A stretch of 64,000 nt of DNA from an uncultured Massilia sp. GTDB taxonomy: Bacteria; Pseudomonadota; Gammaproteobacteria; Burkholderiales; Burkholderiaceae_D. The stretch covers positions 3,928-67,927 of the forward strand of contig CBIHRX010000001.1 in NCBI GenBank assembly GCA_966212555.1, given 5' to 3'. The position numbers were made by a program, and so were the translations under genes. Below the pieces are notes generated by a model that was not told the DNA's origin, searched no databases, and saw only the letters and a list, made by a program, of their open reading frames with translations. Of the stretch, positions 3 through 4,747 are shown piece by piece. Every line of letters begins with the position of its first letter. The first letter of the stretch is position 1.

Positions 3-1100
3 GCCGCCGCGCTGCTTCTGCCCGGCGTGCAGGCGCTGGCCGACGAACCGCCGCAGGAAGGCAGCATCAGCCTGCGCTATCTCGATTACGCCGACCGCCA
101 GAGCGGCCTCGATCGGATCCGTGCCCATTCGCCGTCGATTGCCGTGACGGCGCCCGTCGCGGGCGACTGGTCCATCGAAGGCACGCTGACGGCCGACGAC
201 GTGTCCGGCGCCTCGCCGCGCTACCACACGGCCGTCTCGGGCGCCTCGCACATGCACGACGAGCGCAAGGCGGGCGACTTCGCCGTCACGCACTACTTCC
301 GGCGCGGCACCTTGACGGCCGGCGCCGCGTATTCGACGGAGCACGACTACGTGTCGCGTGCGCTGTCGCTGAACGGCACCGTGTCGAGCGAGGACAACAA
401 CACGACGTGGGCGTTCGGCGTCGCGGGCAGCCGCGACAGCATCGACCCGGTCAACCACGTCGTCGTCGACGAGCACAAGCGCACGCTCAGCGTGCTTGCG
501 GGCGTGACGCGCGTGCTGACGCCGAACGACATCGGCCAGTTGACGCTCACGCGCACGAACGGCGACGGTTATTTCAACGATCCGTATAAATTGTTTGATA
601 ACCGCCCCCGTTCGCGCCGCCAGAACACGGTGCTGCTGCGCTGGAACCACTATGTCGACAGCACGGGCGGCACGTCGCGCCTGTCCTACCGCTACTACAG
701 CGATTCGTTCCGCGTGCGCGCGCACACGCTGTCCGGCGAGTACGTGCAGCCGCTCGGCGGCGGCTGGAGCATCGTGCCGGAACTGCGTTTGTACACGCAG
801 AGCGCGGCCTACTTCTACTACGACCCCGTGTACGACGGCACGCTCGGCGCGCCGTTCCCGCCCGGCTTTGCGAGTGCGGATCCGAACCGGCTGTCGTCGC
901 CGGACCAGCGCCTGTCCGGCTTCGGCGCCGTCACGGCGGGGCTGAAGGTCGTGCGCGAGATCGGCAAGCTGTGGACGGTCGACGTCAAGGTCGAAGGCTA
1001 CGAGCAGCGCGGCAACTGGCGCCTGTTCCACGACGGCAGCCCGGGACTGGCGCCGCTGCGCGCCCGCATCTTCCAGGTCGGATTGACGCGGCGATGGTAG
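3..1100 (+). CDS. DUF3570-family predicted outer-membrane beta-barrel protein (5' truncated by window edge)
   Basis: Frame is open from base 3 (AAALLLPGVQALAD, end of a signal peptide). Alternating beta-strand pattern, two VSGAS motifs, C-terminal aromatic residue (GLTRRW). Directly upstream of apbE, the usual DUF3570 context. Confidence 0.8.
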   Translation, partial: AAALLLPGVQALADEPPQEGSISLRYLDYADRQSGLDRIRAHSPSIAVTAPVAGDWSIEGTLTADDVSGASPRYHTAVSGASHMHDERKAGDFAVTHYFRRGTLTAGAAYSTEHDYVSRALSLNGTVSSEDNNTTWAFGVAGSRDSIDPVNHVVVDEHKRTLSVLAGVTRVLTPNDIGQLTLTRTNGDGYFNDPYKLFDNRPRSRRQNTVLLRWNHYVDSTGGTSRLSYRYYSDSFRVRAHTLSGEYVQPLGGGWSIVPELRLYTQSAAYFYYDPVYDGTLGAPFPPGFASADPNRLSSPDQRLSGFGAVTAGLKVVREIGKLWTVDVKVEGYEQRGNWRLFHDGSPGLAPLRARIFQVGLTRRW

Positions 1101-2008
1101 ACACCGTCTACCGCTTCCCGTTCGACGCGATGGCCAGCCGGTGCGAGATCCGGCTGGCCGCGCCGGAAGGACAGGGGGCGGAAGCGCTGGCCCTCGCGGC
1201 CATCGCCGAGGTGCGGCGCATCGAGCGCACGTACTCGCGCTACCGCGCCGACAGCGTCGTCAGCCGCATCAACGCCGCGGCCGGCCGCTACCGGGTGGAA
1301 TGCGACGAGGAGACGGCGCAGCTGCTCGACTATGCCGATCACCTCCATCGCGCCAGCGGCGGCCTGTTCGACATCACGTCCGGCGTGCTGCGCCGCGCCT
1401 GGGATTTTCGCCAGCCGCGCGTGCCGCATGCCCGCGAACTGGCGCCGCTGCTGGCGCTGGTGGACTGGCCGGCCGTGCAGCGCGACGGCGGCGCCGTGTT
1501 CCTGCCGCGCGCCGGCATGGAGATCGACTTCGGCGGCTTCGGCAAGGAATACGCGGCCGACCGCGCCTGTGCGCTGCTGCAGGAGCGGGGCGTCAAGCAC
1601 GGCTACGTGAACCTCGGCGGCGACATGCGCTTCATCGGGCCGCAACCCGACGGGCGCCTGTGGAGTATCGGCATCCAGGACCCGCGCAAGGCCGACGGCA
1701 TCGTCGCCAGCATCGCCGTGAGCCAGGGCGCGCTGACGACGAGCGGCGACTACGAACGGTTTGTCGACGTCGACGGCAAACGTTATTGCCACGTATTGAA
1801 CCCGCGCACGGGCATGCCCGTGTCGCATTGGCGCTCGGTGAGCGTGCTGGCGCCGCTGGCCGTGTTGGGCGGCAGCGTGTCGACCATCGCCATGCTGAAG
1901 GAAGCCGACGGCTTGTCCTTCCTGGCCGCCGGCGGGCTCGCGTACTTCGCCATCGACAGTACGGGACGAGCGCATCACCACAGTATTTCAGGAGATTACG
2001 CATCATGA
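1094..2008 (+). CDS. apbE: FAD:protein FMN transferase (ApbE family)
   Basis: Motifs FxAMAS, GLFDIT, DFGGFGKEYAAD, VNLGGD, TSGDYER and HVLNPRTG. ATG at 1094 overlaps the upstream stop. Confidence 0.93.
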   Translation: MVDTVYRFPFDAMASRCEIRLAAPEGQGAEALALAAIAEVRRIERTYSRYRADSVVSRINAAAGRYRVECDEETAQLLDYADHLHRASGGLFDITSGVLRRAWDFRQPRVPHARELAPLLALVDWPAVQRDGGAVFLPRAGMEIDFGGFGKEYAADRACALLQERGVKHGYVNLGGDMRFIGPQPDGRLWSIGIQDPRKADGIVASIAVSQGALTTSGDYERFVDVDGKRYCHVLNPRTGMPVSHWRSVSVLAPLAVLGGSVSTIAMLKEADGLSFLAAGGLAYFAIDSTGRAHHHSISGDYAS

Positions 2009-3804
2009 AGCAGCTCTTTCGATGGATGGCCGCGCTCATCCTGCTGGCCAGCACGCTGGTCCGGACGGCCCATGCGGCCGACGACTTCCTGCCGCCCGAA
2101 CAGGCATTCAAGCCGAGCGCCGAACTGCGCGCCGGCGGCACCGTGCACCTCACCTGGGCCATCGCGCCGGGTTACCACCTGTACCGCGACCGCCTCGTGT
2201 TCACCGCGCCGCAGGTCGGGCAGCCGACGTTGCCGGACGGCGTGCGCAAGTTCGACAGCAATTTCAACAAGGAGATGGAGACGTACGCGGGCCAGCTGGC
2301 GGCCGACCTGCCGGTCGACGCCAATGCGAAGGCGCCGTTCGTGCTGCGCGTGGGCTACCAGGGCTGCGCGGATGCGGGCCTGTGCTATCCGCCCGCCGAA
2401 GTCGCGTACATGGTGGACCCGGCGGCGCCGGGCGCGCTGAAGCTGGCGACATCGGATCCCGCTTCGGCGGCCGCGCCCGCGCCTGCGCCTGCGCCGGCGC
2501 AGGAAGACGACAGCTCGCTCGCCCAGCGCACGCTGCAATCGGGCAGCGCCTGGCGCATCGGCCTCGCGTTCCTCGCGTTCGGCCTCTTGTTGTCGTTCAC
2601 GCCGTGCGTGCTGCCGATGGTGCCGATCCTGTCGTCCATCATCGTCGGCGAGGGCAACGTCTCGCGCAGCAAAGGTTTTATCCTCGCGCTGGCGTACAGC
2701 CTGGGCATGGCGCTCGTCTACACGACGCTCGGCGTCGCGGCCGGCCTCGCGGGGGAAGGTCTCGCCGGCGCGCTGCAAAAGCCGTGGGTGCTGCTGACCT
2801 TTGGCGCGCTGCTCGTCGTGCTGGCGTTGTCGATGTTCGACGTCTACCAGCTGCAGCTGCCGAGCAGCCTGCAAAGCCGTTTGAGCACGACCAGCGGCCG
2901 CATGAGCGGCGGCCGCTTCGCCGGCGTGTTCGTGATGGGTGCATTGTCCGCGCTGATCGTGGGGCCGTGCGTGGCCGGTCCGCTGGCGGGTGCGCTGCTG
3001 TACATCAGCCAGACGAAAAACGTGTGGACGGGCGGCTGGGCGCTGTTCTCGATGGCGGCCGGGATGAGCGTGCCGCTGCTGCTGACGGGCGTCTCGGCCG
3101 GCAGCCTGCTGCCGCGCGCCGGCGCGTGGATGAACCACGTCAAGCGCGTGTTCGGCCTGCTGCTGCTCGCGGTGGCCATCTGGATGGTGACGCCCGTGTT
3201 CCCGGTCACCGTCGCGATGCTGCTGTGGGGCGCGTTCGCCGTGCTGTGCGCCGTGTTCCTGCGCGTGTTCGAACCCATCGCCGCCGGTGCGGGGCTGGGC
3301 CGCTTTGCCGGTAAAACGCTGGGCCTCGTGCTGCTGACGGGCGGCCTGTTCGAACTGGTGGGTGCCGCCAGCGCGGGCCAGGACGTGCTGCAGCCGCTGG
3401 CGCACCTGCGCGGCGGGACCGCCGTCGCGGCCGCGGCCGAGAGCAAGGAACAGCGTTTCGAACGCATCCGCACGCTGGCCGAACTGGACAAGGTGCTCGC
3501 GTCGTCGCCCACGCCCGTGATGCTGGATTTCTATGCCGACTGGTGCGTGTCGTGCAAGGAGATGGAACGCTTCACGTTCTCCGAACCGAAGGTGGAAGCG
3601 CAGATGAAGCAGGTGCGCCTGCTGCAGGTCGACGTCACCGCCAACAACGACGAAGACCGCGCGCTGATGAAGAAATTCGGCCTGTTCGGGCCTCCCGGCA
3701 TCATCCTGTTCAAGCAGGGGCGCGAGGTGCCGGAAGGCCGCGTCATCGGCTTCATGAAGCCCGAGCAGTTCGCGCAACACCTGTCCCGCCACTTCGCCTC
3801 CTGA
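2005..3804 (+). CDS. dsbD: Protein-disulfide reductase DsbD
   Basis: Signal peptide; N-domain [11 protein letters not shown]; membrane cysteines TPCVLPM and GPCVAGP; C-terminal thioredoxin [14 protein letters not shown] overlap with apbE. Confidence 0.95.
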
Positions 3805-3808
3805 CATC

Positions 3809-4747
3809 ATGAAAAAACATGCCAGCGTCCTGATCCTGGGTTCCGGCCCGGCAGGCTATTCCGCCGCCGTCTACGCGGCGCGCGCCAACCTGAACCCCCT
3901 ACTCGTCACCGGCGTCGCGCAGGGCGGGCAACTGATGACGACGACCGACGTCGAGAACTGGCCCGCCGATCCCGACGGCGTGCAGGGACCGGACCTGATG
4001 CGCCGCTTCGAACTGCACGCGCGCCGCTTCGAGACGCAGATCGTCTTCGACCACATCCACACGGCGCACCTGCACGAGCGGCCGCTGCGCCTGTCCGGCG
4101 ACCAGGGCGACTACACGTGCGATGCGCTGATCATCGCCACGGGCGCGTCGGCGCGCTACCTGGGCCTGCCGTCGGAGCAGGCCTTCATGGGGCGCGGCGT
4201 GTCGGCCTGCGCCACGTGCGACGGCTTCTTTTATCGCGGGAAGGAGGTCGCCGTGATCGGCGGCGGCAACACGGCCGTGGAAGAGGCGCTGTACCTGGCG
4301 AACATCGCGTCGCGGGTGACGCTGGTGCACCGCCGCGACCATCTGCGCGCGGAAGCGATCCTCGTCGAGCGCCTGCTGGCGCGCGTGGAAGAGGGCAAGG
4401 TGGACGTCCTGTGGAACCACACGCTGGACGAAGTGCTGGGCGATGCGGCCGGCGTGCACACGCTGCGCTTGCGCGGGGAGCGCGGCAGCATCCGCGTGCT
4501 GCCCGTACACGGCGTGTTCGTGGCCATCGGCCACCAGCCGAATACGGCCATCTTCGCAGGTCAGCTGGAAATGGAAAACGGGTACATCGTGACGCGCGCG
4601 GGACGCAACGGCCTGGCGACCGCCACGAGCATTCCCGGCGTGTTCGCGGCCGGCGACGTGCAGGACCACATCTACCGGCAGGCGATCACCAGCGCCGCCA
4701 GCGGGTGCATGGCGGCGCTGGATGCCCAGCGCTATCTGGAGGAGTGA
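3809..4747 (+). CDS. trxB: Thioredoxin-disulfide reductase
   Basis: GSGPAGY FAD motif, CATCDG redox motif, GGGNTA, HRRD and AAGDV; 312 aa. Confidence 0.96.

Follow-up and report, generated by a model that had tools for sequence, protein, structure and literature searches.

Near the left end of a 64,000-nucleotide (nt) stretch from an uncultured Massilia species (contig CBIHRX010000001.1, here C1; the whole stretch is referred to as the window), a gene for a DUF3570 protein is followed by genes for ApbE, a transferase of flavin mononucleotide (FMN), for DsbD, and for a thioredoxin reductase (TrxB). The best explanation, which we hold with moderate confidence, is that these genes belong to an eight-gene island of the published "DsbD system" type that carries a dedicated second trxB and works as an outward path from reduced nicotinamide adenine dinucleotide phosphate (NADPH) to a flavin-bearing barrel. 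The cluster probably hands electrons from inside the cell to an outer-membrane barrel that carries a flavin, and the presence of an extra TrxB of its own suggests that the system is fed by NADPH. Flavinylation of the DUF3570/DsbD kind is widespread, with about 600 clusters in a 2021 survey (Méheust et al., 2021).

Gene order and island boundaries

The initial annotation of this DNA, made from the sequence alone, had described DUF3570, apbE, dsbD, and trxB as a four-gene unit. The four genes are present where it had placed them, and their junctions read as it had given them: ATGGTAG (1094-1100, a 7-nt overlap) between DUF3570 and apbE, ATGA (2005-2008, a 4-nt overlap) between apbE and dsbD, and TGA-CATC-ATG (3802-3811, a 4-nt gap) between dsbD and trxB. 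The extent of the unit needed correction. The upstream flank, to be read for TlpA and DUF4266 genes, contains both, and the four genes are the 3' half of an eight-gene operon-like unit that includes a putative cytochrome c surface protein. The order is mrtJ, the JDVT-CTERM protein gene, a tlpA-like gene, DUF4266, DUF3570, apbE, dsbD, and trxB. Window position 1 corresponds to C1:3928, and genes upstream of it are given in C1 coordinates:

C1:671-1021, same strand: mrtJ, CPBP intramembrane protease, 116 amino acids (aa) (NF033192)
C1:1040-3160, same strand: JDVT-CTERM secreted protein, 706 aa (NF033191)
C1:3157-3666, same strand: TlpA/ResA-like periplasmic redoxin with a Redoxin/AhpC-TSA match and WCGPC
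C1:3663-3872, same strand: DUF4266 lipoprotein (PF14086), with lipobox LAGC and C-terminal GCGCN
1..1100, + strand: DUF3570 gene (PF12094), 381 aa with a signal peptide; true start at C1:3882, 46 nt before the window
204..215, + strand: first SGAS motif, DUF3570 residues 84-87, in the context D-D-V-S-G-A-S-P
237..248, + strand: second SGAS motif, DUF3570 residues 95-98, in the loop between strands 3 and 4
1094..2008, + strand: ApbE FAD:protein FMN transferase, 304 aa (PF02424)
2005..3804, + strand: DsbD, full-length (alpha, beta, and gamma domains), 599 aa (NF001419)
3809..4747, + strand: TrxB, cluster-linked thioredoxin reductase paralog, 312 aa (TIGR01292)
4739..4753, no strand: right edge of the island, where homology to cluster-less congeners restarts just before the convergent ettA stop

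From the JDVT-CTERM gene through trxB, every junction is an overlap or a gap of at most 9 nt, and the gap between mrtJ and the JDVT-CTERM gene is 18 nt. The same gene order and spacing recur in Massilia putida and in 10 further Massilia/Telluria species, and thus the arrangement is not due to chance. A scan for promoters and terminators found no terminator-like or promoter-like site within the eight-gene unit and a weak hairpin 3' of trxB, both of which are uninformative on their own. Only 6 nt lie between the end of trxB (TGA, 4745-4747) and the convergent stop of ettA (4754-4756), leaving no space for a separate terminator there. Upstream of mrtJ (C1:613-641) lies a promoter-like CTGAAC-17 nt-TATTAA followed by ACCGGACGATTTCCG, which is conserved in 12 Massilia loci; the GAAC part of this element is recognisable in M. 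dura, Duganella, and genome G112.

The limits of the island were set by comparing C1:1-16000 (blastn) with two congeners, G001 and G010, both of which show an empty site. The island measures about 8.1 kilobases (kb; C1:~529-8666). In G001 the sequences homologous to C1:133-528 and to C1:8667 onward lie only 60 base pairs apart, and the same flanks are 8.1 kb apart in this genome. Because the flanks adjoin in the congeners, the insertion or deletion corresponds exactly to mrtJ through trxB, with trxB inside it. A gene for a REP-associated tyrosine transposase on the left flank (C1:2-514, minus strand; NF047646, 109 bits) is also found at the congeners' empty site and so is not part of the island. 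We considered whether C1 could be a mis-binned contig and rejected this: the flanks are syntenic, and EttA, encoded beside trxB, is 95-97% identical to that of congeners, which identifies C1 as native.

Across sampled congeners the cluster is sparse (DUF3570 is present in one of 24). M. putida carries the same island at the same location, and in M. dura and Duganella mrtJ through dsbD are found at other sites, without trxB. In the Massilia/Telluria clade, each of the 11 complete loci holds all eight genes; these are the locus of M. putida and ten others, from M. kyonggiensis, M. phosphatilytica, M. rhizosphaerae, M. luteola, M. pinisoli, T. antibiotica, and further Massilia genomes and metagenome-assembled genomes.

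TrxB, DsbD, and the supply of thioredoxin

The cluster TrxB scores 377 bits against TIGR01292 (cut-off 343.45) and 500 bits against the E. coli-type equivalog NF007614, below the cut-off of 644. It has the CATC motif that had been noted (residues 134-137, window 4208-4219), together with GSGPAG at residue 11, GGGNTA at 151, and HRRD at 174. Three thioredoxin reductase genes in this assembly exceed the cut-off, on contigs C1 (the cluster copy), C49, and C204. The C49 protein shares 91-93% identity with the TrxB that congeners have as their only copy, and its gene is therefore the vertically inherited housekeeping one. The genome thus holds the separate housekeeping trxB that the initial annotation had suggested looking for, and the cluster trxB is an extra copy. 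The cluster protein reaches only 74-77% identity with any housekeeping TrxB, and the possibility that it is itself the housekeeping gene was rejected on identity and tree position. The third TrxB (C204:2799-3728) is 74-77% identical to the other two and lies on a contig of 70% guanine plus cytosine, vs 66-67% elsewhere. Five close relatives hold exactly two TrxBs each, none of which is a counterpart of the C204 copy, and the assembly holds three to four thioredoxins vs two in relatives; C204 and the contigs with the extra thioredoxins may be contaminants.

The association of a cluster trxB with a second copy extends to other genomes. All nine checked genomes with a cluster trxB carry another elsewhere (G000, G100, G112, G190-G194, and G233), and all five checked genomes that have a DUF3570 cluster lacking trxB have a single trxB (G031, G122, G125, G169, and G492). 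Exactly one trxB was found in 23 of 24 congeners and none in the 24th, an 80%-complete assembly.

Among the eleven complete Massilia/Telluria loci the cluster TrxB is 90-98% identical. The ratio of nonsynonymous to synonymous substitution rates (dN/dS) of its gene is 0.11-0.18, the lowest of the cluster genes, and dS equals that of the neighbouring genes. Thus, the cluster trxB has been co-inherited with the cluster and is constrained. In a phylogenetic tree, the cluster TrxBs of Oxalobacteraceae form two long-stem clades (stems of 0.39 and 0.26; median tip length 0.056) that branch off at the base of the housekeeping TrxBs of the family. In G233, which belongs to another family, the cluster TrxB is sister to the genome's own housekeeping copy and 94% identical to it (support 100/99). 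A single ancestral capture of all cluster trxBs was rejected by the approximately unbiased (AU) test once G233 was included (p-AU 0.0006); for the two Oxalobacteraceae clades alone, a single capture was not rejected (p-AU 0.19). Together with the placement of G233, this indicates that trxB was put directly after dsbD at least twice. We argue from this repeated capture that electrons flow outward from NADPH; at least two captures, combined with purifying selection, constitute comparative evidence that the system uses NADPH and works reductively and outward. Most likely, the extra trxB raises and co-regulates the supply of reductant when the operon is switched on.

To place this gene in a wider survey, DUF3570 loci were taken from the remaining genomes of a family set of 150 and from a 400-genome phylum set. 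Of these, 2/27 and 1/29, respectively, include trxB (3/56 from other genomes), and in the sampled loci it occurs only in the form of the cluster in which dsbD directly follows apbE. The initial suggestion of a pathway-specific trxB therefore holds insofar as there is a second, cluster-linked copy; as a feature of DUF3570 loci in general, trxB is rare.

DsbD is full-length by its matches to NF001419 (588 bits, cut-off 330) and PF02683 (315 bits), with DsbD_N, DsbD_TM, and thioredoxin domains, and the three cysteine pairs that had been reported are present: C121/C127 in the N-terminal domain, C201/C322 in the membrane domain, and C514/C517 (CVSC) in the C-terminal thioredoxin domain. The protein is 55-61% identical to the DsbDs of island-less congeners. 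In each of five close relatives we found a cluster DsbD that is 91-94% identical to it plus a second DsbD that is 57-60% identical. The housekeeping dsbD sought alongside it did not turn up here: no second full-length DsbD was found in this assembly (513 contigs, 95.7% complete), where a CcdA-like match lies on C426 and the cluster DsbD is the sole full-length one. Most likely the second DsbD is missing from the assembly rather than lost, although a real loss, leaving the cluster DsbD as the sole copy, may have occurred. We also looked for a thioredoxin dedicated to the system and found none, either in the operon or as an extra copy in cluster-bearing relatives (two thioredoxins in the carriers G190 and G192 and two in the non-carriers G001 and G010). 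The path would therefore borrow the housekeeping thioredoxin.

The predicted barrel, its flavin transferase, and possible surface partners

The DUF3570 protein (PF12094, 198 bits, cut-off 25) is predicted to be an outer-membrane-type beta-barrel of 16 strands. An AlphaFold2 model built with 60 diverse homologues (predicted local distance difference test score, pLDDT, 89.5; predicted template modelling score, pTM, 0.85) has 16 antiparallel strands whose connections alternate between short turns of 2-5 residues and long loops of 8-40 residues, and a Foldseek search with it matched only outer-membrane barrels (FadL, OmpG, PgaA, BcsC, PelB, and Occ). The last residue is W, and a C-terminal F or W is typical of the family. 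The [S/T]GA[S/T] motifs named in the initial annotation are found as two SGAS sequences. The first lies in a D-x-[IVM]-S-G-A-S-P context; across 60 diverse representatives, D81, G85, A86, S87, and P88 show little or no variation. Of these 60, 29 also have the second motif, usually 11 residues past the first. The two lie at either side of the loop that joins strands 3 and 4, on the long-loop side of the model, which by the usual topology rule for outer-membrane proteins would be the outer face or the lumen. When expressed in E. coli, the DUF3570 protein of C. luteolum received flavin from its cognate ApbE at two [S/T]GA[S/T] motifs, one of them the counterpart of the first Massilia SGAS (PMC8238504). 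By analogy with this homologue, the Massilia protein may carry covalent FMN, and the earlier description of a flavinylatable beta-barrel agrees with both the model and that experiment. Two variants of the DUF3570 locus were seen: in a metagenome-assembled genome (locus L081, 9592-12592) DsbD directly follows DUF3570, with no ApbE, and in two genomes of another family (G350:C1:2067376-2068914 and G368:C25:8021-9577) the DUF3570 match lies inside an open frame of ~900 aa that may be a fusion.

ApbE is confidently assigned (PF02424, 252 bits; PDB FMN transferases matched at E 1e-34). No signal peptide or lipobox was seen in its N-terminus (1094-1140), which starts MVDTVYRFPFDAMASRCE, on inspection with no dedicated predictor run. 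The start codon lies 12 residues before the Pfam domain, and the in-frame stretch upstream is rich in Arg and Pro and has no hydrophobic core. A signal peptide was likewise absent, again by inspection with no dedicated predictor, from ~50 other DUF3570-linked ApbEs (loci L013-L049 and L092-L113). In DUF3570-linked ApbEs a conserved F-x-A-M-A-S-x-C-E, at a position occupied by MGT in canonical ApbEs, comes at most ~15 residues after the N-terminus. A signal-less ApbE implies either that flavinylation takes place in the cytoplasm before Sec export or that ApbE is exported in some other way.

At the 5' end of the unit, MrtJ (NF033192, 93.9 bits, cut-off 75) adjoins the JDVT-CTERM protein, whose sorting domain matches NF033191 at 48.2 bits (cut-off 27). 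The latter protein consists of an N-terminal CxxCH domain, five choice-of-anchor-D immunoglobulin-like domains, and the JDVT-CTERM sorting signal, and has five cysteine pairs in addition to the sorting cysteine. Its CASCH (residues 44-48) is the sole CxxCH of the cluster. The N-terminal domain matches Pfam Cytochrome_CBB3 weakly, at 20.5 bits (E 6e-4), below the cut-off of 27, and gives a weak match to a lipoprotein cytochrome c in the PDB (E 0.006). Three other lineages encode a small homologue of this domain, a stand-alone cytochrome c, just after apbE:

L029 12441-12626
L030 7994-8179
L035 12693-12863

Their recurrence after apbE supports a flavin-haem partnership, and the JDVT-CTERM surface protein, as a putative cytochrome c, is the likely next electron acceptor. 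The remaining two upstream proteins are the DUF4266 lipoprotein (PF14086, 83.7 bits), which ends in a CXC motif (CGC), and the TlpA-like redoxin, for which the closest NCBIfam families are ResA, DsbE, and TlpA.

Proposed electron path and its alternatives

The core of this system has been described before. Méheust, Huang, Rivera-Lugo, Banfield, and Light (2021, eLife 10:e66878; PMC8238504) reported "DsbD systems" of ApbE-dependent extracytosolic flavinylation, made up of ApbE, DUF3570, a thioredoxin-like protein, DUF4266 (CXC), and DsbD, in 285 clusters, with a further 316 clusters without DsbD, and proposed a hybrid thioredoxin-like/flavin electron path fed by DsbD. The Massilia cluster has all of these parts, including the [S/T]GA[S/T] motifs and the C-terminal CXC of DUF4266. 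It differs from the published system in that the operon adds a TrxB paralog and leads with MrtJ and a JDVT-CTERM putative cytochrome c protein, that its ApbE appears to be signal-less, and that its DUF3570 is modelled as an outer-membrane barrel; the term "thioredoxin reductase" is absent from the main text of that paper. With the core already published, the system is known and trxB is the new increment. The upstream genes recall a second study, on JDVT-CTERM/MrtJ sorting, in which some JDVT-CTERM proteins were seen to have DUF4266, DUF3570, and TlpA genes as neighbours, with the guess that the neighbours act with the mature JDVT-CTERM protein (Haft, 2023; bioRxiv 10.1101/2023.06.07.544157). 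As in that system, the Massilia mrtJ adjoins the JDVT-CTERM gene, whereas ApbE, DsbD, TrxB, and a cytochrome c domain as redox partner are outside the scope of that paper. Among the papers searched, none beyond these two mentions DUF4266 or DUF3570 in such a role. What is particular here is a second, dedicated thioredoxin reductase, combined with the putative JDVT-CTERM cytochrome, in a known system.

The supply side resembles the pathway from TrxB through TrxA and DsbD to periplasmic redoxins, in that it would be an NADPH-to-disulfide cascade over the inner membrane in which DsbD has its three cysteine pairs and the acceptor is a CxxC redoxin. In model organisms the only trxB is an unlinked housekeeping gene, and DsbD serves DsbC, DsbG, and CcmG in E. 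coli; TlpA is known from Bradyrhizobium. In contrast to that pathway, the extra trxB of Massilia is physically coupled to dsbD, and electrons are proposed to end up on a flavoprotein barrel instead of on an isomerase or a cytochrome-maturation factor. On the outer side, an outer-membrane beta-barrel with redox cofactors, a surface haem protein, and electrons moving outward would be shared with MtrCAB and the Geobacter Pcc conduits. Unlike these, the Massilia cluster has no multihaem protein, its barrel is modelled with 16 strands (~26 in theirs), the FMN would sit covalently on the barrel's own loop, and the supply would be thiol-based rather than quinol/CymA-based. The system is not a member of the porin-cytochrome conduit family.

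Taken step by step, NADPH would reduce the cluster TrxB, whose motifs are intact, and TrxB would in turn reduce the cell's ordinary thioredoxin, the operon encoding none. Thioredoxin would then reduce DsbD, by the established chemistry of that family, and electrons would cross the inner membrane to be passed, as family knowledge suggests, to the TlpA-like redoxin. From there TlpA may exchange with the CXC of DUF4266, and a dithiol could reduce the FMN bound covalently to DUF3570, if the barrel is flavinylated like its homologue. The flavin might finally pass single electrons to the haem of the JDVT-CTERM protein or to an outside acceptor. The complete chain, running from NADPH through TrxB, thioredoxin, DsbD, TlpA, and the DUF4266 CXC to FMN on the barrel loop and on to a lipid-anchored surface cytochrome c, in combination with cytoplasmic, pre-Sec flavinylation by a signal-less ApbE, is put forward tentatively, and we regard it as rather doubtful that it is right in its entirety. 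If it were, it would be a kind of path not yet demonstrated, in which the flavin serves as a converter from two-electron to one-electron transfer and the independent captures of trxB are a genomic signature of the direction of flow. Cytoplasmic flavinylation by a signal-less ApbE, if true, would be a new cofactor-loading route for an outer-membrane protein. Culturable Massilia strains permit a clean genetic test with the two trxB paralogs, and given the putative cytochrome c partner and the signal-less ApbE, the questions come down to the destination of the electrons and the site of flavin attachment.

Several points weigh against an outward conduit with a dedicated trxB. Having no thioredoxin of its own in the operon, and with no extra one in relatives, the path is not self-contained, and the initial annotation, which had called it so, overstated the case. 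At 3/56 loci, trxB is too rare to be a core requirement. That the two G233 copies are so similar could stem from gene conversion instead of recent duplication. The cytochrome c assignment is made from a CxxCH and weak matches, and we infer the steps past DsbD, from thiol to flavin and from flavin to haem. Finally, an ApbE that appears to have no signal would require flavinylation ahead of the export of an outer-membrane protein, for which the conduit model gives no explanation.

These points leave room for a different use of the same reductants. TrxB, DsbD, TlpA, and DUF4266 could form a maturation or maintenance branch that keeps cysteines reduced for the assembly of the cluster's own proteins (for haem attachment at the JDVT-CTERM CxxCH, the invariant sorting cysteine, and the DUF4266 CXC), with the barrel fed elsewhere or acting independently. 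Cytochrome c biogenesis classically uses DsbD or CcdA together with a TlpA-type redoxin (CcmG, ResA, or TlpA) as its reducing arm. In keeping with such a role, the NCBIfam families nearest to the TlpA-like protein (ResA, DsbE, and TlpA) are cytochrome-maturation redoxins, and the CxxCH, five cysteine pairs, and sorting cysteine of the JDVT-CTERM protein would offer it substrates. We nevertheless consider this branch unlikely, since the core of TlpA, DUF4266, DUF3570, and ApbE is kept in loci that have no cytochrome or JDVT-CTERM protein (most of the 56), which ties TlpA to DUF4266 and DUF3570 and not to a haem protein. In addition, a stoichiometric role hardly accounts for the repeated recruitment of a whole NADPH reductase.

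That recruitment also bears on whether trxB belongs to the path at all. It might be a passenger, a duplicated housekeeping gene at the end of the operon that serves general redox homeostasis or as a back-up under oxidative stress. Its position would fit, as it is always the last gene and is missing from most DUF3570 loci; the system has no dedicated thioredoxin, and the catalytic motifs of the protein are generic, with only E77, otherwise invariant in housekeeping TrxBs, altered in both Oxalobacteraceae cluster clades. However, the slot directly after dsbD (gap of 4-30 nt) arose at least twice independently, trxB has been retained in at least 11 species under purifying selection, it lies within the insertion or deletion that defines the island, and in the sampled loci it occurs only where dsbD directly follows apbE. 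We judge a passenger trxB to be distinctly improbable, and prefer a dedicated reductase feeding an outward path.

The least probable alternative, for which we see very little chance, is that the chain runs in reverse as a thiol oxidase relay, from dithiol through flavin to cytochrome c, that drains periplasmic or surface thiols. Erv/ALR sulfhydryl oxidases use a dithiol-flavin-haem chain of this type, as in the Mia40-Erv1-cytochrome c pathway, and the thioredoxin-fold protein, CXC protein, covalent flavin, and c-type haem predicted here would make up the same chain; but a thiol oxidase would need no NADPH, whereas DsbD and TrxB are dedicated to bringing electrons into the periplasm, and the fact that they are linked and were repeatedly recruited speaks for a reductive supply.

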